The translations under genes were made by a program, and so were the position numbers. From Eledone cirrhosa (lineage: Eukaryota): a stretch of DNA of 64,000 bases. The number at the start of each line of letters is the position of its first letter. Positions within the stretch are counted from its first letter, which is position 1. The DNA is taken from NCBI GenBank assembly GCA_964016885.1, contig OZ024740.1:175026001-175090000 (forward strand), read 5' to 3'. Below are positions 2,576 through 62,916 of the stretch, one piece after another. A model generated the notes under the pieces. The model was not told where the DNA came from. It ran no database searches and saw nothing but the letters and a program-made list of their open reading frames with translations.

Positions 2576-3369
2576 CTGATTTGCATATATTTGTATGTGT
2601 CTATGTTTATGTCTATATTGCATATTTGTATATGTCCTGTAACCTAAAGATCAATTAAATAAGTAGCAGACTTGATGAAGGAAAAAATATTGGGATCAAT
2701 ATAATTGATTAAACCTTTGAATATAGTGCCCCAGCATGTCTGCAGAAAAAGAGTAAAAGAATAACAGCTGCAACAACAACAAAACAATAGAGTAACAATG
2801 AAAACAGCAAGTCTACAAATCTATAAATATATAAATATATAAATTTGAATTTTAGATTTTATTTTGGCAACTCTTCCATATAATACGGTTGGAATGTTCT
2901 GGCAGATTTTACCTATCATGTTTCTTGAAGAACATTCTTAATCTCATTGATTAAATAAAAATGCAGCAATGTTACAGGTTGCATTCTTCACTCAATACAT
3001 ATAACAGACATCTTTCAAAATTTTCCACTCTTCTTTCCATTATTATTATTATTCAGAATAGTTAGTGTCAGAGAAAATGCTTTGCAGCATTTAGTTAAAG
3101 CCTTTTCCTTTCAGAGTTCAAATCCTACCAATGTCAACTTTGCCTTTGTACCTTCTAGGGTTGATAAAATAAAGGAGGAGGACCAGCAGAATCATTTGAG
3201 CATTGGACAAAATATCTTGCATTATGAGTTTCAATCCCACCCAAACTCTACTTTGCTTTTCATCTGTTGTGGTGGGTTGATAAAATAAAGTACCAGTCAG
3301 GCACTACGGTTGATTTAATCAACTATCATCTCCTCCTACATTTCTGATCTTGTGTCATTTTAGAACAAT

Positions 3370-5040
3370 TCATCATCATCATCATCATCAACGTTTAACA
3401 TCCGTGTTCCACGCTTGCATGGGTTTGGACGGGGGTAGTCCCACTTGAGGCAAGAGTGATTGTCTTGCTCGCATAGGACTGTCTGGCAGGTTTTCTACAG
3501 TTGGATGCCCTTCCTAACACCAACCACATTTACAGTGTGGGTCTGGGAGGTTTTTACCGTGTTGCCTACACGGCCACATTACAGCGTGGACTGTGTGTTT
3601 TTTTATCGTGACACCTACACGATCTCATTTGTTTCGGCCTGGATGGTGTGGCACCAACATAACTTTACATAGAAGAGGGTGGTGTGGATGGGGTGGGGGT
3701 GGTGGGACGGGGGTGTATTTTGTTAGAGATGCCTACTGACTGTAGTAGGTTTTACATTGTATTTAGGTAAGGCGGGTCTTCTCTGTTACTGAGTACCGCC
3801 AAAGGTCTCGGTCCAGTGACATTGTCTTGGAGAGGTGTAAGTGTGTGAGGTCGGAGTTTATCAGCTCGTCCCAGGTTTTTCTAGGTCTGCCTATTCTGTG
3901 GCTACCGTCTATCTTTATTGCCCTGCACTTTGTTATACAGCTATCGACTTTCATGCGCATCACGTGACCATACCAACATAGCCTTCTCTCGAGTAAACAA
4001 CATCTGATCCCTCTTATTTCTAATTTTTTCCTTAGTTCGTTTATGCTTTGCCGTTCACGTATATTACTATTACACATCCAGTCTGCGTATATCCTCTGCA
4101 CACAATGCCCAGGTCTCACTGCCATGCAACATTGCTGTTCGTATGCAGGCATCATACAACCTGCCTTTCATTTTTAGGGAGAACCCTTTAGCGGCTAATA
4201 GTGGTATAAGCTCTCTGAACTTTTTCCATCCAGTTCTGACTCTAGCTACTGTACTTTCAGAGCACCCTCCCCCACTGCTGATTTTGTCACCCAGGTAACG
4301 GAAGCTGTCCACTATTTCTATAGAGCCCTCTGCGCAGTTGTAAGAGCTAGTATTTTGTGGGCACTTGCTGCTACTTATTGCACCAGAGCACCGGCCACAT
4401 GTAAAATCTATGTTTTTAGTTAGCTTACCTGTGATCCCACTACATCTTTTATGCACCCATACTTTGCATTTGGGACATAAAATGGAGTTTCTACCTACGC
4501 CTTTCCTACACACTGAGCATGGCCATTTCCCGGAAGGGACCGCCGCCTTATTTTCTTTCCTACAAACTAGAACTTTAGTCTTAGCCAGGTTAATTTTAAG
4601 GCCTTTTGATTCTAGGCCGTGCTTCCATGTTTGGAATTTCTTCTCTAGCTCGGCCATTGATTCAGCTATCAGTGTTAGGTCGTCTGCGTATAGGAGTTCC
4701 CATGGGCAGCCAGTCTTGAACTCCTCTGTTATAGCCTGAAGGGCAATAATAAATAGTAGGGGGCTGAGAACAGAGCCCTGATGGACGCCAACTTTTACGC
4801 TAAACTCTTCACTATATTCGTTGTTAATTCTAACCTTGCTGACTGTTTCTTTATACATGGCTTGTATAGCTCTCACAAGCCATTTGTCGACACCTAGTTT
4901 TCTAAGGGCCCACCAGATAATGAAACAGGGGACTCTGTCGAAAGCTTTCTCCAAGTCGACAAAAGCTAAGTAGAGGGGTTTACCTTTAGCTAGGTACTTC
5001 TCCTGTAGTTGTCGTACAATGAAAAGAGTGTCTGTGGTAC
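3370..5040 (-). mobile_element. 5'-truncated RTE LINE, subfamily A (RT + PHD finger + 3'UTR + (ATG)n tail)
   Basis: ORF 4070-5143 has FVDLEKAFD, GVHQGSVLSP, YADD and SFRYLG. ORF 3763-4155 has WYGHVMR..GRPRKTW. (CAT)n tail at 3370. Confidence 0.95.
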
Positions 5041-5089
5041 TTACTCTTATTAATATTTTTGTGTTGGATATTAACATATTTTTACTAGA

Positions 5090-5162
5090 TAAGAAAAAAG
5101 TATATTCTTGTTTCATTGGCCTTGAAAAGGCATATGACCACATTCCACAAGACCTGCTGTGG
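5090..5162 (+). mobile_element. Short RT fragment of a second RTE family
   Basis: Translates KKVYSCFIGLEKAYDHIPQDLLW (DLEKAYD motif). Confidence 0.6.
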
Positions 5163-5230
5163 ACACCAGGTACACTTTTCCATGTGCTCTATCTTCAGAA
5201 GTAGAGCATATGGAAAAGTGTACCTGGTGT
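5163..5230. repeat. Near-perfect 29-bp hairpin
   Basis: acaccaggtacacttttccatgtgctcta ... tagagcatatggaaaagtgtacctggtgt. Confidence 0.9.
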
Positions 5231-10938: not shown

Positions 10939-11278
10939 TGGAGGCACATGGCTTAGTGGTTAGAGCATTGGCCTTGCAATCAAAAGGTTGTGAGTTCAAT
11001 TCTCAGACCGGGTTATGTGTTGTTTCCTTGAGCAAGACACTTTATTTCACATTGCTCCAGTTTACTCAGCTGTAGAAATGAGATGATAGGGACTGATGTC
11101 CCTATCATTCCACTGCAAAGTGGTCGTGGAGGTGCCACAGCTAAAAAGCACCCAGCACTCACTGTAAATGAGGTTGGTGTTAGGAAGGGCATCCAGCTGT
11201 AGAAATCAAGCCAGAATCTGTTCCCGTCCCACCCTTGCAAGCAGGGAAAAGCGGACGTAAAATGAAATGATGAAATGC
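10939..11278 (+). mobile_element. SINE family 1
   Basis: ggaggcacatggcttagtggttagagc head with A/B boxes; RTE-like tail. Confidence 0.92.
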
Positions 11279-16029: not shown

Positions 16030-19000
16030 TGATGGCTACCTACCTCACAATTTCCCTCACACCACCATAGCCTATTCGACCAATCAAACCTCAGCATGTC
16101 CCCCCCCACCCATTACCAACCCCAACAAACCCTGCCATTTCTACTACTACCTACCTCTCTCCTCTCACTCGTCCAAGCCCCAACACACCCTGCCATTATT
16201 ACCACCACCACTGTTCTTCTAGCCCTGAATTTTCCTACCATTATGTATGGATGAGCTGAGAATAAATGGAGCAACTCCGAATTAATAAATGAAAATGAAT
16301 ATGAATCCGCGAGCGACCAAGCACCCATGTGAAGCTTCAATTCAGAGACAGGAAGCACACGCACACCCCTCAAAAATTGACCCTTCCCCACGAACTTTGA
16401 CAAATGCCCAAAACTCTGAGTTGGTACCATCAATGTAAGCACAATAAAAAGAAGAGCACGAGAAATTGTAGAGATGCTAGAGCGAAAGGAAATAGATGTA
16501 TGCTGTGTGCAAGAGACTAGATGGAGAGGAGAGTCTGCTAGAGTCCTTGTAGGAAAAAGTCAGTGCTACAAATTTTTCTGAGTGGGAAATGACAATGGGA
16601 TGGGTAGTGTAGGTATCCTACTAGCTGACAAGTGAGTAGATAAAGTAATCTCAGTGAACAGGGTGAATGCAAGAATCATTAAACTCAGACAAGTCCTGAA
16701 TAAAACAATTACCACAATAATATCAGCTTACGCACCCCAATCGGGGTTGCCAGACGAAGTTAAGGATAGGTTTTACGAGTCTCTAATGCACACTACTGCT
16801 CTAACAAACAACAATGACTTCCTAATCATTGCAGGAGATTTTAACGGACACATAGGTAAACACTGTGACGGCTTCTATAGAGTCCATGGAAGCCATGGGG
16901 TTGGCACAAAAAATGAATTCTGCGACGCCAATAACATGTCGATATGTAACACAAACTTCAAAAAACCCGAGAACCACCTGATCACCTATAGATCAGGGGA
17001 GCATTCTAGTCAGATAGATTTTATCCTCATCAGAGGACGTGACAGATGGATGGTCGTAAACACAAAAGCCTTCCCTAGTGATGAATGTACCTCCCAACAT
17101 AGCTTAGTTGTCAGCAACCTCACGGTCAGAACTAGATGAACCTGGAAACAGAAGCCAACCTGGAGAAGAAAGATCTGGAAGCTGAAAGACCCCTCAGCCA
17201 GTAACAGATTTAAAGATATTTTACTCAACGCCTACGACAGTAAAGAAGAACAGATAGAGACATTCAATATAGAAGAGCACTGGGAGTTCCTAAAAAATAA
17301 CTTACTAGAGGCGACGGATGAGATCTGTGGCTGAAGTAAGACCACAGGCAGAAGGAGAGTGACTTGGTGGTGGAACAATAAGGTAGATGAATCAGTTAAG
17401 GCCAAGAGACAGGCATGGAAAGAATGGAAGAACGGGGGAAGCAGGGTACATTATATAGAGACCAGGATGGAAGCTAGGCGACAATTATACTTAGCTAGGA
17501 GGGAAGCATAGGATAGAAAATTCAAGTATGCACCACTGATGCCCTCTTCCTTCTGAGGCAATTACAGGAAAAGTACCTAGCTAAAAGTAAGCCACTCTAC
17601 CTGGCATTCATCGATCTCGAGAAAGCCTTTGACAGAGTTCCCAGTGCTATAATCTGGTGGGCTCTTAGAAAACTAGGAGTAGATGAATGGCTTGTGAAAG
17701 CTGTACAAGCCATGTATAGGGGAACAGTCAGCAAAGTTTGGATTAGCAATGAGTATAGCGAGGAATTTAGCGTACAGGTCGGTGCCCACCAGGGCTTTGT
17801 TCTTAGCCCTCTCCTGTTGTTCATAGTCCTGCAGGCAATAACAGAGGAGTTTAAGACCGGATGCCCATGGGAACTCCTGTATGCAGATAACATCGCACTT
17901 ATAGCTGAATCTATGGTAGAACTAGAGAAGAAATTCCAAACTTGGAAGCAGGGACTAGAAAGAAAGGGTCTCAAAGTCAACCTGACAAAGACTAAGGTCC
18001 CTGTAAGTACTCGAGAAAACAGAACCCAGATCCGCTCAGGGAAATGGCCTTGCTCAGTATGTAGGAAAGGTGTAGGTATGAACTCCATTCTCTGCCCCAA
18101 ATGCAAACAATGGGTACACAAGAGATGCAGCGGGATCTCAGGAAGCTTAACTAAGAATGTAGGCTTCACGTGTAGCAGCTGTGCTGGGACAGCAAGCAGC
18201 AAACAGCCACAGGAAACAAGTACCAACAATCTCTGGGAGGGCTCTGTAGAAACAGTAGACAGCTTCTCCTACCTAGGTGACCGAATTCGCAGCAGAGGTG
18301 GGTGTTCAGAAAGTACAATAACTAGGGTAAGAACGGGATGGAAGAAGTTTAGGGAGCTACTTCCACTGCTAGCTGCAAAAGGCTTTTCCCTCAGAATGAA
18401 AGGCAGACTGTATTATACGTGTATATGAACAGCAATGTTACATGGTAGTGAGACCTGGGCACTGAATGTGGAAGACTTGCGTAGATTAGAAAGAAACAAA
18501 GCCTGCATGCTCCGATGGATGTGTAATAGTAATATACGCGAACGGCAAAGCATAAATGAATTGAGAGAGAGACTGAGCATAAGAGGAATCAAATGCTGTG
18601 TGCAGGAGAGGAGGTTGCATTGGTATGGACGTGTGATGCGTATGAAGGATGATAGCTGCATAAAAAGCACTAGAAGTCGATGGAAGCCGCAGAGTGGGGA
18701 GACCCAAGAAGACCTGGGATGAGGTGATAAAGGCCGACCTAACCCAATTACACCACTCAAAGGCGATGATACACAACTGTGACCTCTGGCATCACGCAGA
18801 AATACAGAATACCCGACCCCCACACGGGTACAAGCCGAAGCATATAGACAGTATGCCCCTCCTCCACTGCAAAGTGGTCGTGGAGGTGCCACAGCACAAA
18901 AAAGCACCCAGCCCACACTGTAAAGTGGACGTGTAGGCGCCACGGAAAAAAAGCACCCAGCACTCACTGTAAATGAGGTTGGTGTTAGGAAGGGCATCCA

Positions 19001-34749: not shown

Positions 34750-35102
34750 ATGGAGGCACATGGCTTAGTGGTTAGAGCATTGGCCTTGCAATCGAAAGGT
34801 TGTGAGTTCAATTCTCAGACCGGGTGGTGTGTTGTTTCCTTGAGCAAGACACTTTATTTCACATTGCTCCAGTTTACTCAGCTGTAGAAATGAGATGATA
34901 GGGACTGGGGTCCATATCATTCCACTGCAAAGTGGTCGTGGAGGTGCCACAGCAAAAAAGAACCCAGCACTCACTGTAAATGAGGTTGGTATTAGGAAGG
35001 GCATCCAGCTGTATAAATCGAGCCAGAATCAGTTCCTGTCCCACCCTTGCAAGCAGGGAAAAGCGGACGTAAAATGATGATGATGATGATGATGATGATG
35101 AT
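34750..35102 (+). mobile_element. SINE family 1
   Basis: Full head, core and (ATG)n tail. Confidence 0.93.
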
Positions 35103-36779: not shown

Positions 36780-37878
36780 AAAGATGTAGTGGGATCACAG
36801 GTAAACTATCTAAGAATATAGATTTTATATGTGGCCGGTGCTCTGGTGCAATAAGTAGCAGCAAGTGCCCACATAATACTAACTCGTTCCATTGCACAGG
36901 TGGTTCTATAGAAATAGTGGACAGCTTCCGTTACCTGGGTGATAAAATCAGCAGTGGGGGAGGGTGCTCTGAAAGTACAGTAGCTAGGGTCAGAACGGGA
37001 TGGAAAAAGTTCAGAGAGCTTATACCACTATTGGCCGCTAAAGGGTTCTCTCTAAAAATGAAGGGCAGGCTGTATGATGCCTGCATACGAACAGCAATGT
37101 TACATGGCAGTGAGACCTGGGCATTGTGTGCAGAGGATATACACAGACTGGAGAGAAACGAAGCGTGCATGCTCCGCTGGATGTGTAATAGTAACATACG
37201 TGAACGGCAAAGCATAAACGTACTAAGGGAGAAATTAGAAATAAGAGGGATCAGTTGTTGTTTACTCGAGAGAAGACTACGTTGGTATGGTCACGTGATG
37301 CGCATGAAAGACGACAGCTGTATAAAAAAGTGCAGGGCAATAAAAATAGACGGTAGCCACGGAGTAGGCAGACCCAGAAAAACCTGGGACGACTTGATAA
37401 ATTCCGACCTCACACACTTACACCTCTCCAAGGCAATGTCACTGGACCAAGATCTTTGGCGCTACACAGTAATACAGAAGACCCACCTTACCTAAGTACA
37501 AAGTGAAACCTACTACAGTCAGTAGGCACCTCTAACAAAATACACCCCATCCCACTACCCCCACCCTATCCACACCACCCATTCAATGTAAAGTTATGTT
37601 GGTGTCACAACATCCAGCCCGAAACAAATGAGGTCGTGTAGGTGTCACGACAAAAAACACACAGTCCACGCTGTAATGTGGCCGTGTAGGTAACACGGTA
37701 AAAACCTCCCAGTTCCACACTGTAAATGTGATTGGTGTTAGGAAGGGCATCCAGCCGTAGAAAACCCGCCACAGTCCTATGCAAGCAAGACAACCACTTT
37801 TGCCTCAAGTGGGAAAACCCCCGTCCAAACCCATGCAAGCGTGGAATACGGACGTTAAACGATGATGATGATGATGAT
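36775..37878 (+). mobile_element. 5'-truncated RTE LINE, subfamily A
   Basis: ORF 36917-37495; begins inside the PHD finger (HKRC) after (TA)n; (ATG)n tail. Confidence 0.95.
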
Positions 37879-37989
37879 ATATATATATATATATATATAT
37901 ATGTAGGAGGTGAGTTTTATAGTACAATAAAGCAATGCAGATATCGGATAAGAAGCACTCTACAGTTTGTAGGACTGGAGTATAGATAA

Positions 37990-38234
37990 TATATAAGATC
38001 AAAAGATGGTTAAAAGAGTTCCATGTATTTTATAATGTTTATCCAAAAGCATTTCAAAAACAAATATCATCATGCAATAACATTTGTGTTTTCATCAGAT
38101 AAAATAGGAAGACATATCATGTCTTCCTATTTTATCTGATGAAAACACAAATGTTATTGCATGATGATATCTGTTTTTGAAATGCGCATAATAAAATACA
38201 TGGAACTCTTTTAACCATCTTTTGATCTTATATA
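37990..38234. repeat. Fold-back element, ~120-bp arms, 3-nt loop
   Basis: Arms meet at gacat-atc-atgtc (38111-38123). Confidence 0.95.
38128..38198 (+). ncRNA. Type I minimal hammerhead ribozyme
   Basis: tattttat-CTGATGA-aaaca..tgttttt-GAAA-tgcgca-TA-ataaaata; 8-bp stem I; palindromic stem III. Confidence 0.8.
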
Positions 38235-38237
38235 TAT

Positions 38238-38587
38238 CATCATTTTCATTTCATCATTTCATTTTACGTCCGCTTTTCCCTGCTTGCAAGGGTGGGACGG
38301 GAACTGATTCTGGCTCGATTTCTACAGCTGGATGCCCTTCCTAACACCAACCTCATTTACAGTGAGTGCTGGGTGCTTTTTTGCCGTGGCACCTCCACGA
38401 CCACTTTGCAGTGGAATGATAGGGACCCCAGTCCCTATCATCTCATTTCTACAGCTGAGGAAACTGGAGCAATGTGAAATAAAGTGTCTTGCTCAAGGAA
38501 ACAACACATCACCCGGTCTGAGAATTGAACTCACAACCTTTCGATTGCAAGGCCAATGCTCTACCCATTAAGCCATGTGCCTCCATA
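38238..38587 (-). mobile_element. SINE family 1
   Basis: Reverse copy of 10939-11278. Confidence 0.93.
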
Positions 38588-38717
38588 TATATATATATAT
38601 ATATATGCGTGTGTGTGTGTGTGTGTCATTGTTTAACGTCCATCTTCCACACTAGCATGGGTTAGACGGTTTTGTTCCACTTGAGGCAAGATTGGTCTGG
38701 AATATATATATGTATAT

Positions 38718-38905
38718 ATTGTTTCTACTTTAGGCACAAGGCCAGCAATTACCCAGTGCATTACTGGTACTTTATTTTATCGACCCCGTAAGGATGAAAG
38801 GCAAAGTCAACCTCGGCGGGATTTGAACTCAGTTCGTTAAGGGACGTAACACGCTGGAAAGCATGGCGTCCGACCCTCTACCGATACTGCCAATCCACCG
38901 CCCTT
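38718..38905 (-). mobile_element. SINE family 2
   Basis: Near-consensus reverse copy. Confidence 0.92.
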
Positions 38906-39029
38906 ATATCCACCCTATATATGTATATATTGATTGTTTTATAGGTTTGTGCAATAAATGAATTTGATATACTGTTTATAGAATCAAAATAATATTTCTG
39001 ATAATACTGATGTTAGTCCTTGTCATTTC

Positions 39030-39340
39030 CAATGACCAGTTTCTAGTTAATTCAATCAATGGAACAGCTTGTTCATGAAATTTAGATGTAAGTGGCTGAG
39101 CATTCTACAGACACGTGTATCCTTAGTGCAGTTTTCAGAGAGATTCAGCATAACAATGTATGACTATGCTGGCTCCTTGTAATACACGTACTGCTAATTT
39201 TTGCCAATTGAGTGGACTGAAGCAATGTTAAATAAAGTATCTTGTTCAAAGACATAATGCACTACTGAGTTTGAGAATCAAATTTACAACCTTACAATCA
39301 AAAGATGAACACACTAACATCTAAGCCATGTGCCTTCATG
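39030..39340 (-). mobile_element. Older SINE1-related element
   Basis: ctaagccatgtgccttca head and aagcaatgttaaataaagtatcttgttcaa core, with a different tail. Confidence 0.7.
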
Positions 39341-39704
39341 CACACCAATACTACCAGCTTCTCAGAATGCTATATTAAGAAGCTGGTAGTATAAGTGAAA
39401 CCTCAAAATAAACAGTCATTATTATTAATAAACATTATTCTAAATTAACCAAATATTATCTTGAATTAACCAAATTTTGTTTGCACTCCTAGCTTTACAA
39501 AGCTTCTGAAAGATGATAATTGGCAGCTAGATGTGCTTCAGTGTAATGGAAAAATGTGGTCCTGCTGCATATGACAGATACATGGTTCAATTCCTGCAGG
39601 TGTTTTTGTCCACTTTTTCATTCTCCAGGGATACTTTACTTGACTTATACAACAATTATTTATAGTTATTTGCAATATGGCAGATTCTCAAAAAACAAAC
39701 ATAT

Positions 39705-39741
<37 letters not shown>

Positions 39742-39743
<2 letters not shown>

Positions 39744-40315
39744 AAAAAGTATGACCCGACGGCAGAGCTCAAGTCGTTTCGACGGCTATTTCTGGACTAA
39801 ATTAGAATTTTTAGCCTGGTAAATAAATATCCGAACTTGTCAAGGGGTACTTCCTTATATGGGAAGATTGTAGTTGTCAAGAGGATTGGTCAAAATTTGT
39901 TGTAAACACAAATAAGTCTATCATGGCATTTGGTGGGAGGTGTGGGTGGCTGAACTTGCCTGTAGAACATTGAAAGGGTCATAGTGCAATTAGCCTGTAG
40001 AACAATGTTCTACAGGCAAGTTCAGCCACCCCCACCTCCCACCAAATGCCATGACAGTCTTATTTGTGTTTACAACAAATTTTGACCAATCCTCTTGACA
40101 ACTACAATCTTCCCATATAAGGAAATACCCCTTGACAAGTTTGGCTATTTATTTACCAGGCTAAAAATTCTAATTTAGTCCAGAAATAGCCGTCGAAACG
40201 GCTTGAGCTCTGCCGTCGGGGTCATACTTTTTCCAATTCCCACTCTACTATCCTAAGTATTGAGTACTCTGGTGCGTTATCGTCCATCTGGTTCCTTACC
40301 ACATTTCCTTCGTTA
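39742..40315. mobile_element. Fold-back HHR element (~230-bp arms + unpaired 3' tail) in (TA)n
   Basis: Arms 39742-39972 and 40003-40234; tail 40235-40315 shared with 62375-62453. Confidence 0.93.
40127..40222 (+). ncRNA. Type I hammerhead ribozyme, U3:A8 core variant
   Basis: acccc-TTGACAA-g..ggctattt..aaatagcc.tc-GAAA-cggc..gccg-TC-ggggt; all three stems pair. Confidence 0.8.
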
Positions 40316-40343
40316 TATACATATATATATATATATATATATA

Positions 40344-41527
40344 CTAGCAGCAGAACCCTGCGTTGCACGGGGTAGGAAACGTGAAATAGCACCACGTATA
40401 GACAAAGATTGAGGAATATAGCTGTGTACATTTTGAATTCCCTTATTCTCAGGGAATGATTGTTCATCTACTGGAAACGTAGAACACCAGCAGCCCGAAT
40501 CCAGTAGTAGCAATGTCAGTGGGCTGATTGTGGAAATCCTGTATGTGAAAGGAGTAAGTAAGTGTTGTGGGGCGATGTATGTCGTAAGTCTGTTCACGAA
40601 TTACGTCATGGATGGGGAACACATGTCAGTCTGAAGGAGCGACGTGTGAAAACCAAGTAGGGATGTACGTTTAAGTAGGGATATTGAGATGACGAAATCA
40701 GCGTGGCAACGCAGCTGCAGCAGAAGGTAGGTAGGTCATAGTGCAATTAACATAAATGCTGGGCGGCACTGGTTGCACTGCATTTACACAGCAACAAAGG
40801 TGCGACAAAAGGGGTCACCTCAGAATTAGCACAACCGCTGTTCAGCGTACTTGCGCAGGTCGTTCATACTGCAGTGTAGGTGCAACAAAAGGAGTATTAG
40901 TAGAAGTAGCACAAACGTGAGTTTTACGGTGTCAATAACTCGGCAACGTACACAGGGCCCGGATTTGCGCGTGATGAAAGCACGAAGCGTCAACAGGGCA
41001 ATAACAAAAATTTTAAGGTCCTCCTCATTTCCTCAATCCCCCGAAAATGGTTCTGCTTAAAAGTAAGTAAGTGTTGTGTCCTCTGTTAAATAAACCAAAT
41101 TTTTAACAAAATATTATACGCTATTTATGATGTTTAACTAGCGTTTATATTGAAAATGAAAATGTCATGTAATGCCCAATGCTAATTCGTAAATTTCCTA
41201 GAAACCATTAATGGAATCGGAAATGTTTTTTGTCCACAGCAATGCAAGGGGACTAACTAATGTGTGCTGCATATTTCAAGGAAATCGGCTGGATTATCTT
41301 TAAGTTACGCCTCAAAAATGCCTTTAAAATGCGGGGGGTTTTTCGCCTAAAAAAGTTTTTTTAATTTTTTTAGAACTGTTTCATTTGTATGTTGATTTTT
41401 AAATAAATAAATAATGATACTGGCTTAATTAAAGCATGTGTGAGTGGGAAAATGATCGAAGATTTTTGGTTTTATCCAGTGACTTCATTTCAGTATTATC
41501 ATTATTAGTATAAAGAAAGTATTATGA
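40344..41527 (-). mobile_element. Non-autonomous Helitron
   Basis: Minus-strand 3' end has hairpin cccgtgcaacgcaggg then CTAG|T; TC start near 41516-41527. Confidence 0.75.
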
Positions 41528-42574: not shown

Positions 42575-43795
42575 CAATGTTGCATAATTTTAAAAGTAAA
42601 TTTATATTTGGTGGTTCACAACATTTTTTCTTATAAACTTTGTTGGTCTCTAGTGTGGGGTGGTACACTTGAACTTGTGGAGGTTCAACATCTATTCAGA
42701 GCTGAAGATTCTTTACCCTTAAAGAGAAGGTCTAGATATCTCAGTCACTGTCAGGTCAATTATTTGTTAAGTTTGTGGAGAGTTTATTTATGAATGAAAA
42801 TTAAAAATCCCCAGAATATCAACCCCATTTTTAGGGTGTATATTCAGAAATCATCTTAATATTTACACTATGTTTTAATTGGTTTCAGATTAATGTCCTC
42901 TATTTCCAAACAAAATGTAACAATATGTTTATCCAAAAGCCAACAGAAAATGTAATTATTGCTGTATCAGCTAAATATACAAAAAGTCTTTAGTCATAGG
43001 TCTGTTATTCTGGCTCCTCCTGTTGTAAGATCACATCCTGCTATGTTTTTCATCATTCTGAGGTCACTAAATAAAAGGTATTAGTTAAGAGATGCACTGG
43101 CAGAGATATTAGAGCATCAGGTATGGTACCTTGCAGTATTTGTTTGAGGTCTTTGCATGCTGATTTCAAATCATGCAGTATGGTAAACTTAATCAGTTGT
43201 CTGATTTAACATCACTATCAGGCTCCTGGGTGTTTTTAGGGGAGCACATTCTTTTGCAAGCATTTAGGTCAATACTCCAGTTTGATGATATGCTACTCCT
43301 CCTCCTCCTGCCAGCAATACAGTGGCCCTAAAAAAGCACCATGGATACATAGGATAATGTGGTTCTAGATATACGTTATAAAAAACTGGAGGGTCATGAC
43401 TGAAATATCTTGAGCATGTTTATTTGATTAGGAGCTGACCTAGAACTCAACAACAATACTATCACTACAAGGAAGTATTTATTAGAAATAGCAATAAAAT
43501 CTATTTCAAATTACTCACTCCCCCCCCCCCCACCACCACCACCATCACTTTTGAGAACATATTAAGACGATGTTGCCCTCGACACCCCAAAGGAAGACAA
43601 ACCGGTTATGGATGGAAAGCTTTTGATCAAATGTCTGTTTGAGCATGGTTGACCCTAATACCCTTTCTGCTATCAATACTCTCTCTTACCAATATCAACA
43701 TCTTCGTCACCACAAGAAAAGCTATGAAGTTAGTAAACCTAGTAAAAAATGTCAACAAACTTCACTCAACCATTTGAGATAAGTACATTAAATAT

Positions 43796-48005: not shown

Positions 48006-48738
48006 CCTGTCTCTGATGGAGAGGTAGTGAGGTTGGCAGAATCATTAGAACATCAGACAAAATGTCCTTTCATGGGTGATAAAATGAAGTACCATTAAAT
48101 TATTAGAGGTCAATGTAATTAATTACCCCACTACTCCAAATTTCTAGCTTTGTGTCTATGTTGGAAATATAAAAGAAGTAGGTATAGTGGTTAGTGTGAA
48201 GTCTGGAGTTGGAGTCACAATATGGATGACAAGAATATTGTTGTTATTATTTTATTAGTGATAGTGGAGTAGCAGTGGCTTGGCAGAATTAGCAGAGCAT
48301 AGGACAAAATGTTTTGCACTATTGTTCAAATTCTTTATGTTCTAAGTTCAAATGCTGCTGAGGTCAACTTTGACTTTCATCATTCCAGGGTTGATAAAAT
48401 AAAATACTAATGAAAGTACTGGGGTTTGATATAATCAACTTTCTTATGCCTTAAAAGCTATTACTATGATAGAAGATGGTAGATATATTAGAGCATTGGA
48501 CAAAATGTCTTGTATTAATTGTTTTTAGATGAGTTCAAACCGTGCCATGGTTGACACAGCAATTTATTTTTTTTTGCAAATGAAAGTAGTAGGCTAGAGA
48601 AACTAAAAATAATCCAATTTCACTCTTTTCGTATTCACTATTGTTCATTGCTTTGTGTAATAAATAAACTGATGCTGTTATTTAACACTTTATCATTATA
48701 GAGATCCTTAGGTTTCAATTATCCTTTTTAAAAATGTA

Positions 48739-54282: not shown

Positions 54283-57200
54283 TCATCATCACCGTTTTAC
54301 GTCCGTTCTTCCACGCTAGCATGGGTTAGACGGGTTGTCCTATTGTGGGCAGTATCTGGTCGGCTGACCATGCCTTGCTCATACAGGAACTGATTTGGCT
54401 TGATTTCTACAGCTGGATGCCCTTCCTAACACCAACCTCATTTACAGTGAGTGCTGGCTGCTTTTTCGTGGCGCCTACACGTCCACTTTACAGTGTGGGC
54501 TGGGTGCTTTTTTTGTCGTGGAACCTCCACGACCACCTTCCGGTGGGGGGTGTGGGGGCATATTGTCTATATGCTTCAGCTTGTACCCATGGGAGGTCGG
54601 GTACTCTGTATTACTGCGTGACGCCAGAAGTCACGGTCGTGTGTCATTGTCTTTGAGAGGTGTAATTGGGTAAGGTCGGCTTTTATCACCTCATCCCAGG
54701 TCATCTTGGGTCTCCCCACTCCGCGGTTTCCATCAACTTCTAGTGCTCTGCACCTTTTTATGCAGCTGTCATCCTTCATACGCATCACATGTCCATACCA
54801 GCGCAACCGCCTCTCCTGCACACAGCATTTAATTCCTCTTATGCTCAGTCTCTCTCTCAATTCATTTATGCTTTGTCGTTCACGTATATTATTGTTACAC
54901 ATCCATCGGAGCATGCAGGCTTCGTTTCTCTCTAATCTACGTAAGTCTTCCACCTTCAGCGCCCAGGTCTCGCTACCATGCAACATCGCTGTTCGGATAC
55001 ACTCATCATACAGTCTGCCTTTCATTCTGAGGGAGAAGCCTTTTGCAGCTAGCAGTGGTAGTAGTTCCCTAAACTTCTTCCATCCCATTCTTACCCTAGT
55101 TATTGCACTTTCTGAACACCCACCTCCGTTGCTAATTCGGTCACCTAGGTAGCAGAAGCTGTCTACTGTTTCTACAGGGCCCTCCCAGAGATTGGTGGTA
55201 CTTGTTTCCTGTTTGCTGTCTCAGCACAGCTGCTGCATGTGAATCCTACATTCTTAATTAAGCTTCCTGAGATCCCGCTACATCTCTTGTGTACCCATTG
55301 TTTGCATTTGGGGCAGAGAATGGAGTTCCTACCTACACCTTTCCTACATACTGAGCAAGGCCATTTCCCTGAGGGGATCTGGGTTCTGTTTTCTCGTCTA
55401 CTTACAAGGACCTTAGTCTTTGTCATGTTGACTTTGAGACCCTTTCTTTCTAGTCCCTGCTTCCAGGTTTGGAATTTATTCTCTAGTTCTACCATAGATT
55501 CAGCTATGAGCGCGAGGTCATCAGCATACAGGAGTTCCCATGGGCATCCGGTCTTAAACTCCTCTGTTATTGCCTGCAGGACTATGATGAACAGGAGAGG
55601 GCTAAGAACAGAGCCCTGGTGGACCCCAACCTGTACGCTAAATTCCTCGCTATACTCATTGCTAATCCTAACTTTGCTGACTGCTCCCCTATACATGACT
55701 TGTACCGCTTTCACAAACCATTCATCTACTCCTAGTTTTCTAAGAGCCCACCAGATTACAGCATGTGGAACTCTGTCAAAGGCTTTCTCAAGGTCGACAA
55801 ATACCAAGTAGAGTGGCTTACTTTTAGCTAGGTACTTTTCCTGTAATTGCCTCACAAGGAAGAGGGCATCAGTGGTGCCTCTTCCTGGTACAAACCCAAA
55901 TTGCATCTCGTCTATTTTCACCCGGTCCCTAATCAGCTGTGCTATAACTCTTTCTGTTACTTTCATGACCTGGTCCATCAACTTTATACCTCTATAGTTT
56001 CCTCTATCTAGTGCATCGCCTTTACCTTTGTAGCAGTTGACAATGATGCTACTGCACCAATCTTTTGGTATGGCCCCTTCTAGTATTACCTGGTTAACGA
56101 TACGTGTGGTTATAGTGTGACCTACAGACCCAGATGCCTTCAGCATCTCGGCAGCTATACCCGATGGACCGGTTGCCTTCCCCATCTTCATATCTTTGAT
56201 TGCCTTACTTACTACGCTGCCGCTGACTTGTACTGCTGGTCCCTCTATAGGGTCTACTTGGGGTAGGGTCACTTCTTCCCATGCATTCTCCTCATTTAGT
56301 AATCTATCATAATGACTCTTCCATGCATCTTTCTTCTCAGCACTTGTGAGGGCAAGCTCACCTTTAACATTCCGGATACACTTCTCTCCAATGACATCAC
56401 AACTATCTCTGACACACTGCCTCACAATCTTGAATACCTCCTGTTTCTGGTCCTCACGTTGTAAAACATGCTTGAATTTTCTATCCTCTGCTTCCCTCCT
56501 AGCTAAGTATACTTGTCGCCTAGCTTCCCTCTTGGTCTCTATGTAATGTACCCTGCTCCCCCCGTTCTTTCATTCTTTCCATGCCTGTCTCTTGGCCTTG
56601 ACTACTTCATCTACCTTATTGTTCCACCACCAAGTCACTCTCCTCCTGCTTGAGGTCTTACTCCAGCCACAGACCTCATCCGTCGCCTCTAGTAAATTAA
56701 TTTTTAGGAACTCCCAGTTCTCTTCTACATTAAATGTCTATATCTGTTCTTCTTTACTGTCGTAGGCGTTGAGTAAAATATCTTTAAATCTGTTACTGGT
56801 TGAGGGGACTTTCAGCTTCCAGATCTTTCTTCTCCAGGTTGGCCTCTGTTTCCGGGTTCGGCTAGTTCTGACCGTGAGGTCGCTGACAACTAAGCTATGT
56901 TGGGATGTACATTCATCACTAGGGAAGGCTTTTGTGTTTACGACCATCCATCTGTCACGTCCTCTGATGAGGATAAAATCTAACTGACTAGAGTGCTCCC
57001 CTGATCTATAGGTGATCAGGTGGTTGTCGGGTTTTTTAAAGTTTGTGTTACATATCGACATGTCATTGGCGTCGCAGAATTCTAGAAGTCTGAATCCTTC
57101 CTCATTCCTTGTGCCAACCCCATGGCCTCCATGTACTCTATTGAAGCCGTCGCAGTGTTTACCTACGTGTCCGTTAAAATCTCCTGCGATGATTAGGAAG

Positions 57201-57335
57201 TCCTTGTCGTCTGTTAGAGCAGTAGTGTGTATTAGGGACTCGTAAAACCTATCCTTAAATTCGTCTGGCAGCCCCGATTGGGGTGCGTAAGCTGATATTA
57301 TTGTGGTAATTGTTTTATTCAGGACTAGTCTGAGT
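54283..57335 (-). mobile_element. Long RTE LINE, subfamily B (EN partial + RT + PHD + 3'UTR)
   Basis: ORFs 56738-57061, 55172-56425 (NYRGIKL, QFGFVPG, YADD) and 54576-55088; few disruptions. Confidence 0.96.
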
Positions 57336-57608
57336 GTGTGTATATATATGTGTATATATGCATATAAATGTATATATGTATATATTAGAGCTATTTAATT
57401 GTAAGAGACTACTCTGAGTTTCTAACTCACTATATATTTGTCGGCTCCATCATGTTGAGGTAATTTTAAAGTCTTGTTAACCAGGCTGCTATTTTTAGCG
57501 GCATGGGATTTCGAGACAAGCTGGGTTCCGAAGACACGTGCGATAATTCTTATCGCACACAATTCAGTCTTCTAATATATTTAGAAGTGAAAGGATCGCT
57601 AATTTCTC

Positions 57609-57690
57609 AACAACTACTGAGGAGTAGAGAAAAGTGTGGACTTCACTTAATAAGATGTTGCGAAACAGTTTCCAAAACTGTCTAGTTGTT
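57609..57690 (+). ncRNA. Canonical type I hammerhead ribozyme
   Basis: aacaacta-CTGAGGA-gtag..ttgc-GAAA-cagttt(cca)aaactg-TC-tagttgtt; 8-bp stem I, 7-bp stem III, GUC site at 57680-57682. Confidence 0.9.
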
Positions 57691-60908: not shown

Positions 60909-61198
60909 TGATGTTTCAGCAAAGTAAGTTGATAGTTTGCTAAACTTTAGGTATGTATGAATATATATATATATCAGATAGGGTGTGGTAAAATACCCAC
61001 CAGAGTACCCGATACTTGGGGTAGTTGAATGGGTAATATGAACAGATTCAGGACCCCGACGGCTGAGCTCTGGTAGTTTTGACAGATCTAGCTGTCGAAA
61101 TGGCCAGAGCTCAGCCGTCGGGGTCCTGAATCTGTTCATATTACTCACTCAACTACCCCAAGTATCGGGTACTCTGGTGGGTATTTTACCACACCCTA

Positions 61199-61259
<61 letters not shown>

Positions 61260-61308
61260 TACATACCTAAAGTTTAGCAAACTATCAACTCACTTTGTTG
61301 AAACATCA
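60909..61308. repeat. Fold-back element centred in HHR stem II, including flanking (TA)n and unique DNA
   Basis: Centre gacag-atctag-ctgtc; arms share gaccccgacggctgagctc with the 39.7-kb and 62.3-kb elements. Confidence 0.95.
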
Positions 61309-62269: not shown

Positions 62270-62453
62270 ATAGGAACCAGTAAGACCCCGACAGCTGAGC
62301 TCAAGCCGTTTCGACGGCTAATTTCGACGTCGAAACGGCTTGAGCTCAGCTGTCGGGGTCTTACTGGTTCCTATTACCCACTCTACTACCTCAAGTATTG
62401 AGTACTTTGGTGCGTTATGGTCCACCTGGTTCCTTACCACATTTCCTTCGTTA
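62270..62453. mobile_element. Short fold-back HHR-family element with 3' tail in (TA)n
   Basis: Arms 62270-62316 and 62328-62374; tail homologous to 40235-40315. Confidence 0.92.
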
Positions 62454-62916
62454 TATATATATATATTTTTTTTTTTGTTACATGTTTCATTTAAAATGCA
62501 TATGTGTAAAGATAAGATTTCTAAGATGTATTAAGAGCTACAAAATAGATAAATTATATTGCTCAATGGTCTTTTTAAAACTCCAGCCATTCCTCTGCAA
62601 AAGCAAACACCATACAATTGACACAATCTTCACTATTTTCTCACCCCTCTGCTACCTTACTCTCTTTCTCCACATACCAACCATGCCCACCCCCGTCTAT
62701 CATGTTTCTTCCCCCTTCTCTTTTTATACACTCTTAAAAAATCTAGTTGTTGAGATGATATTCAGTACTTTCTTCTAAGTTTCACTTGTGTCTTTATTAT
62801 TTTGTTTTGGTGGGGTATTTTTTAAAGTATGTTTTTCATGAATATTTAGTTGTTCTTTATTCACTGAGAGAGAAAATATCAATAAAACATATCTCACTCC
62901 CTCTCTCATATATATA

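Follow-up and report, generated by a model that had tools for sequence, protein, structure and literature searches.

A hammerhead-bearing head-to-head insertion in a (TA)n tract of Eledone cirrhosa, probably of Penelope-like origin, with a scar in one arm

A stretch of 64,000 nt from contig OZ024740.1 of Eledone cirrhosa (the window) contains a fold-back in which each arm carries a hammerhead ribozyme (HHR) motif, with a different stem III in each. This arrangement raises the question of whether the locus unites two ribozyme designs or whether one of its arms is damaged – and, in either case, how an inverted structure of this kind came to lie in a (TA)n tract. Positions are those of the window, and the features of the element are collected in Table 1.

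Table 1. Features of the fold-back element and of the probable donor of its scar
Feature	Position	Strand	Basis or remark
(TA)n target tract, left side	37877-37902		(GAT)n-tailed end of another repeat precedes
One-sided 3' tail of minus arm, 86 nt	37903-37988	-	family sequence; read coverage to 37903
Minus arm (long 3' end), 5'-truncated at 38115	37989-38115	-	
Minus-arm type I hammerhead	38026-38106	-	descriptor match
Minus-arm hammerhead stem I	38106-38099 with 38033-38026	-	
Minus-arm hammerhead core	38098-38092	-	
Minus-arm hammerhead stem II	38091-38056	-	
Minus-arm hammerhead G12-A15.1	38055-38052	-	
Minus-arm hammerhead predicted cut	between 38034 and 38033	-	
Scar, minus-arm stem III	38034-38050	+	family reads; match to 42925-42940
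Head-to-head junction, 3-bp mini-stem and 3-nt loop	38113-38121		
Plus arm (short 3' end)	38113-38237	+	TA-rich internal stretch at end, merging with (TA)n
Plus-arm type I minimal hammerhead, family type	38128-38198	+	descriptor match
Plus-arm hammerhead core	38136-38142	+	
Plus-arm hammerhead stem II	38143-38178	+	mismatch at 38171, absent among listed family variants
Plus-arm stem III 8-nt palindrome	38182-38189	+	
Plus-arm predicted cut	after A38190	+	
Probable scar donor	42925-42940	+	4.9 kb away; unique in window; unrelated flanks

The fold-back and its hammerhead motifs

The fold-back is borne out by its pairing. The inner arms (38049-38115 and 38119-38185) are 99% complementary over 67 nt around a 3-nt loop, the outer arms (37989-38037 and 38187-38235) are 98% complementary over 49 nt, and the predicted fold of 37980-38245 reaches -169 kcal/mol (z -33), a value that 0 of 200 shuffles equalled. 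The extent of 37990-38234 given in an earlier note on this DNA describes the fold-back but falls short of the full element, which spans 37903-38237 and includes 86 nt more on the left. The element consists of two head-to-head 5'-truncated 3' ends inside a (TA)n tract: the minus-arm tail meets (TA)n at 37903 and the plus arm closes in a short TA run at about 38237. A target-site duplication is unreadable inside (TA)n. Of 112 bases compared beyond stem III, one is unlike between the two arms; overall they are distinguished by a 10-nt net insert, two substitutions, and the 86-nt tail. Directly to the right of the element lies a young repeat (38236-38575) that is 95-97% alike to 10949-11277 and 34761-35102 and includes a sub-threshold tRNA-like match at 38518-38575.

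A type I hammerhead descriptor recovered the motifs that had been noticed in both arms (38128-38198 on the plus strand and 38106-38026 on the minus strand). The whole 64 kb yields three motifs, these two included, whereas 40 block-wise dinucleotide shuffles of the window average 0.25 (maximum 1). Both arm motifs read outward from the fold-back centre. The full type I core, as listed in PMC3088659 (C3 U4 G5 A6 N7 G8 A9, G12 A13 A14 A15, U16 H17), is present in both arms; all core letters are kept in the minus arm too, in agreement with the claim that the arms share one core. The minus-arm stem I has 8 bp, and 15 of the 16 pairs of its stem II are formed. Pair 10.1-11.1 is A-U in both arms, and a minority family variant gives G.U at this place. 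The Rfam hammerhead models, which miss the window's two other hammerhead motifs as well, gave no match in the whole window at the gathering score and none at E up to 10 in 37800-40500 or in the plus arm alone. Other sub-threshold Rfam matches at E up to 10 (miRNA, snoRNA, tRNA, sRNA, and pseudoknot) were rejected as hairpin effects or chance.

We observed that the two arms diverge in the predicted behavior of stem III. The plus arm had been read as a minimal hammerhead with a palindromic stem III, and structure prediction agrees: the monomer pairing probability of stem III is 0.0, and intermolecular pairing is predicted. Its stem III self-duplex has 8 bp and a predicted -10.5 kcal/mol, the dimer fold reaches -36.5 kcal/mol versus -22.2 for two monomers, and the minimum-energy dimer is predicted to be a textbook double hammerhead with 8 intermolecular stem III pairs. 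Judging from these folds, the plus arm should be a minimal Penelope-type hammerhead whose palindromic stem III works only as a dimer. Both stem III sequences and the minus-arm AUU site are as the earlier note wrote them, but the longer helix it ascribed to the minus arm is barely predicted (3 bp, mean pair probability 0.1) and folding this stem III alone gives no hairpin. The minus-arm stem III self-duplex reaches -1.8 kcal/mol, and its dimer contains 0 intermolecular stem III pairs versus 8 in the plus arm. Given this pair probability and the loss of dimer pairing, the minus-arm ribozyme is probably inactive, with its dimer palindrome lost. Nor can the two arms be each other's dimer partner, because a read-through RNA would fold as one long hairpin in which formation of ribozyme stem I is predicted to cost about 84 kcal/mol.

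The repeated family and the scar in the minus arm

We compared 4 of 24 listed public runs with the minus arm and its tail alone (37903-38118, 216 nt); no RNA run stood among those listed as containing the sequence. The family is highly repeated, being represented by 2696 contigs in run X1, 258 in X4 and, from a second organism, 31 in X5, together with 4707 raw reads in X22; the summed read depths given below are not copy numbers. The family's stem III is the minimal palindrome seen in the plus arm, together with an AUA site. At 38034 the plus-arm letter makes up 253420 of 254893 depth in X1 and, in X22, 1841 of 1862 and 391 of 508 (113 starts). Family reads cover the tail to 37903, and nearly all of them have 3 nt behind 37919 that this copy lacks. 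A second 3' end of the family lies at about 37981 (minus-arm coordinates) and is followed by (TA)n in 265 X22 reads and 54 X1 contigs – giving the family two 3' ends about 80 nt apart, both at (TA)n.

The reads also bear on the fold-back centre. Family sequence runs on upstream of it (443 X22 reads behind 38115), and three other opposite-strand joints are found in X22 (93, 76, and 3 reads from 1, 2, and 2 starts, respectively). Since the family continues past the centre and the other joints differ, the centre is not fixed. Comparison of the window with the 443 X22 reads and with 21 X1 contigs behind 38115 identified the junction loop letters as plus-arm family sequence, which means that the arms overlap by 3 nt. 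None of the listed reads or contigs spans the locus's own junction or its whole stretch, as would be the case if the palindrome were a library or assembly fold-back artefact. The differences between the arms and the presence of head-to-head joints of other copies in independent raw reads make such an artefact extremely improbable.

Conservation of the core among copies is seen in the family variants. Among the 40 variants listed, of 45 in all, 0 of 11 invariant core places vary versus 16 of 53 other ribozyme places (p 0.03), and the only core places that vary are N7 and position 17 (H17). Twelve listed variants fall in stems I and II; with one at a mismatch set aside, 11 of 11 changes at paired places keep pairing, versus 26 of 46 possible transitions (p about 6e-4) – though both p values are optimistic, as the listed variants are partly linked in subfamilies and the changes are not independent events. 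Beyond the tested stems, a variant at 38109 disrupts one pair in the predicted outer extension of stem I. At 15 places where the family varies, both arms have the same letter (a chance of about 2% if the places are unlinked), an agreement that would fit one arm having been copied from the other and would equally fit two primings on one kind of RNA. We discarded one further signal, a lower depth upstream of the cut site than downstream, as confounded by the scarred reference and by diverged subfamilies.

A separate observation concerns the kind of change. Of the 20 adenosines in stems I and II (38056-38106, loop included), 8 have A>G variants, whereas none of the 27 in the 3' part does. This pattern may mean that linked subfamilies tolerate wobble pairs or that the RNA template was edited (by ADAR). 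A search covering few subscription journals found no literature combining Penelope-like elements, hammerheads, and A-to-I editing.

What, then, is the minus-arm stem III? It starts with a changed base at 38034 (position 17), after which 16 nt (38035-38050) are identical to 42925-42940. Eleven of these nucleotides (38038-38048) stand in for one family base, so that family reads omit 10 nt there, and the ends of the 16-nt block have 3 and 2 letters in common with the family sequence. Depth in X1 drops to 1003 over 38039-38046, flanked by 355396 and 247178. Because family reads have the plus-arm letter, omit the 10 nt, and lose depth here, the minus-arm stem III is rare or private. An exact match of 16 nt or more was found in 1 of 300 shuffled windows, and of 14461 16-mers taken from single-copy, non-simple sequence of the window, 18 recur exactly at a second place.

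As far as sequence comparison can tell, the minus-arm stem III is a rare or private scar with the form of a templated insertion, and no second ribozyme design. The second design implied by the earlier note therefore does not survive the comparison with family reads, which carry the plus-arm version. One might still suppose that a single element combines a dimer-dependent arm with a monomer-competent arm and cleaves strand-specifically, since no core letter is missing from the minus arm, an NUH site is present there, and a 3-bp stem III can be drawn. We regard this as very unlikely: the minus-arm stem III is nearly absent from family reads, it matches unrelated nearby DNA, and it combines the low pair probability with the loss of the dimer fold described above. 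Elsewhere in the window, one isolated exact 16-nt match (3198-3213 and 48491-48506) joins otherwise single-copy places, possibly by chance.

Origin of the inverted structure and neighbouring elements

We consider it very probable that the locus is a dead, doubly 5'-truncated insertion of a hammerhead-bearing 3' end (pseudo-LTR), derived from an endonuclease-positive (EN+) Penelope-like element (PLE) family or from a non-autonomous RNA that such a family moves. The architecture, the repeated family, the conserved ribozyme fold, and the templated scar are seen here; the mechanism that we infer is as follows. An RT-endonuclease would nick both strands of the (TA)n tract, and each 3' end would prime cDNA on the same kind of RNA, whose hammerhead would be of the minimal, dimer-dependent type. 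One cDNA would start at the far site (37903) and the other at the TA-rich site about 80 nt further in; two such start sites would explain the one-sided tail. Both cDNAs would stop about 20 nt upstream of the ribozyme core and would then be fused head to head by end joining, through the 3-nt overlap. The minus-arm stem III would have been overwritten by an insert templated 4.9 kb away, either during integration or in later break repair. As reported in PMC11167929, a purified PLE protein acts on both strands of AT-rich DNA, cutting and extending each, and PLE RT starts at two internal sites that bound the tail.

Variants of this scheme fare differently. We rejected pure snap-back from the long arm, as the short arm served as template for the loop letters; a snap-back starting on the short arm is possible, with later trimming needed to account for the tail. 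Pairing of two RNAs through the stem III palindrome as the cause of the inversion was set aside, given that Naiads invert without canonical hammerheads according to PMC8557442. Pfam searches of 150 of the 181 window frames of at least 65 aa identified no GIY-YIG or PLE-type gene; the matches comprised LINE-type RVT_1, PHD/C1, and AP-endonuclease pieces and two weak sub-threshold matches. Because the copy is truncated, an RT/GIY-YIG gene is not expected inside it, and strict PLE membership of the element is unproved in that no such gene could be linked. Scans of metagenomes for further family copies with flanks returned 0.

The window contains another fold-back family with hammerheads, which shows no sequence similarity to the element and was rightly called unrelated. 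One copy (39739-40314) lies in (TA)n and carries a plus-arm hammerhead at 40127-40222 with a U3-A8 core, a core described for minimal PLE hammerheads (PMC4209133); a relaxed U3-A8 scan gives 0.4 matches per shuffle, and it is the shared family structure that identifies the motif. In its left arm, stem III contains a mismatch, and the G run that directly follows the cut site is one G short. At its centre we observed a 16-nt insert (39977-39992) identical to 40734-40749, and this templated origin rules out the spacer as upstream family sequence. The long arm starts with a mini-hairpin (39993-40004 and 40006-40017, 12 bp), as does that of the copy at 62270 (62322-62335). The two copies agree in having a long and a short 3' end, separated by about 75 nt, an arrangement that fits a mechanism with two start sites.

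Further observations concern the shorter fold-backs of the neighbouring family (62270-62455 and 60973-61204), which are 89% and 77% alike to the 40-kb copy, have different centres, and retain no more of the hammerhead than its 3' half. All six arms share, without variation, a 6-nt palindrome in loop III (40205-40210). The 61-kb fold-back is symmetric, lacks a tail, and has (TA)n on both sides, beyond which lies a 54-nt inverted duplication (60909-60962 and 61255-61308, 96%) with no further occurrence in the window. Its origin is either a snap-back that copied the flank or an older, nested fold-back. A short fold-back at 5163-5230 (93% over 69 nt) gave no hammerhead motif in the scans. A third, unrelated type I hammerhead (57609-57690, plus strand) has a long stem III, occurs once in the window, forms no fold-back, and probably represents a third Penelope-like family. 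The window also holds broken LINE copies in which RVT_1 is followed by a PHD finger (55175-56569, 4073-5188, and 17517-18425) and AP-endonuclease pieces (56741-57394 and 16636-17136), all of which we take to be RTE-like.

Two other origins were weighed against a Penelope-type insertion. Near-perfect inverted arms flanked by TA would suit a palindromic, MITE-like DNA transposon with TA target sites and a captured hammerhead, but the tail is one-sided, family sequence continues past the centre, other joints differ, and the neighbouring family has three different centres; we find a transposon of this type highly improbable. Alternatively, the source might be a non-autonomous hammerhead RNA of the animal non-LTR retrozyme kind (tandem units, circular RNA) that borrows Penelope enzymes, with the locus a truncated insertion of it. 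The type I hammerhead, the high repeat number, and the lack of a visible coding gene point in this direction, and retrozymes have been proposed to derive from PLE pseudo-LTRs (bioRxiv 10.64898/2026.07.22.740005). The locus has no tandem hammerhead unit, however, and over the 216 nt compared family copies end at (TA)n and not in a next unit, though arrays elsewhere are possible. A retrozyme source thus appears unlikely.

Returning to the scar, its first altered base adjoins the predicted scissile bond. Because it starts exactly there, the scar may record a reverse transcriptase crossing self-cleaved RNA, and would then be a fossil of ribozyme cleavage in the cell – a reading that we offer as tentative and rather doubtful. 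Position 38034 would be the first base that the RT meets after running off the 3' cleavage product; the enzyme would add one untemplated base, 16 nt copied from nearby DNA would bridge the gap, and the RT would resume on the 5' product. The exact position, an extra base that is otherwise unexplained, the youth of an element with one other difference between its arms, and a similar insert at the junction of the neighbouring fold-back all favour this account. Against it, the event is single, the insert coincides as well with the centre of the 8-bp palindrome, and another joint at 38033 (3 reads) may be an alignment stop at the scarred reference. Ordinary break repair in the middle of that palindrome, combined with a nearby substitution, would be the competing account. 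An in vitro study reports that the HHR is dispensable and that no RNA ends lie at the cut site (PMC11167929), and the literature searched, which covers few subscription journals, gave no indication of such a scar.

If cleavage did leave this footprint, minimal PLE hammerheads would cut the very RNA used for insertion, and truncation points and scars across family copies should cluster at the scissile bond. Such clustering, if seen, would amount to evidence at the level of DNA for in vivo cleavage by minimal PLE hammerheads, and the idea would provide a genome-only test of an open question about PLE hammerhead cleavage.

Independently of the footprint, the analysis brings a further Penelope-like family and disposes of a false lead, in that the odd stem III is damage and not a new ribozyme. 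The family is useful in being highly repeated, in keeping its ribozyme fold, and in preserving junction traces (a 3-nt overlap, mini-hairpins, and locally templated inserts). These traces bear on the formation of Penelope inverted structures, a matter named as unresolved in PMC8557442. Read-through of such stubs would give long hairpins: this locus, if transcribed, would form one of 120 bp and, on the predicted folds, would more likely serve as a source of double-stranded RNA than as a ribozyme. PLE inverted copies have been reported as a source of siRNA in Drosophila (PMC3681739) and palindromic repeats as ADAR targets (PMC5625713).

Comparison with known systems

PLE insertions are reported as inverted 5'-truncated copies with a one-sided 30-40 bp tail and (TA)n targets (PMC8557442), and PLE head-to-head inversions have junction palindromes (PMC3846280). 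Like the EN+ PLE insertions in these accounts (Penelope/Poseidon, Neptune, Nematis, and Hydra), the element combines head-to-head inversion and a one-sided tail with a short junction overlap or palindrome, a (TA)n target, and a hammerhead near the 3' end. It departs from them in its tail of about 80 nt, about twice the 30-40 nt of PMC8557442, and in having no ORF in this copy and none linked to it, so that a clade cannot be named. Penelope-like families in Octopus vulgaris are listed in PMC13282606, whose main text does not use the word hammerhead.

Minimal palindromic PLE hammerheads are described, together with pairs of them lying 100-700 bp apart on opposite strands (PMC4209133). The element shares with minimal metazoan PLE hammerheads a full core and a short, palindromic, dimer-requiring stem III (PMC4209133; PMC6765202), as well as a long stem II and an opposite-strand pair within 100-700 bp (PMC4209133). 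Unlike them, it has a stem II of about 15 bp versus 7-8 and a stem I of 8 bp versus 4-5 (PMC4209133; PMC6765202). It also has A-U at 10.1-11.1, where PMC4209133 calls the G10.1-C11.1 pair highly conserved, gives no Rfam match, and has one scarred arm. Animal non-LTR retrozymes, as presented in bioRxiv 10.64898/2026.07.22.740005, resemble it in their type I hammerhead, non-coding nature, and tie to PLEs, but the element is inverted and truncated and is not tandem at the locus.

Inserts from theta-mediated end joining are described as short and copied from adjacent or more distant DNA (PMC11292364). The scar is like these in being a short insert with a few shared bases at both ends, and differs from those described there in that its donor lies 4.9 kb off and that it sits inside a retroelement arm, at a ribozyme cut site.

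The earlier note had proposed that the union of fold-back and HHR is common to several unrelated families in this genome. A second unrelated family in the window agrees with this, but the combination had already been published: going by PMC4209133, PMC3846280, and PMC8557442, it is a hallmark of Penelope-like insertions and no new system, and the family or its hammerhead may already be present in the supplements of PMC4209133 and PMC8557442.
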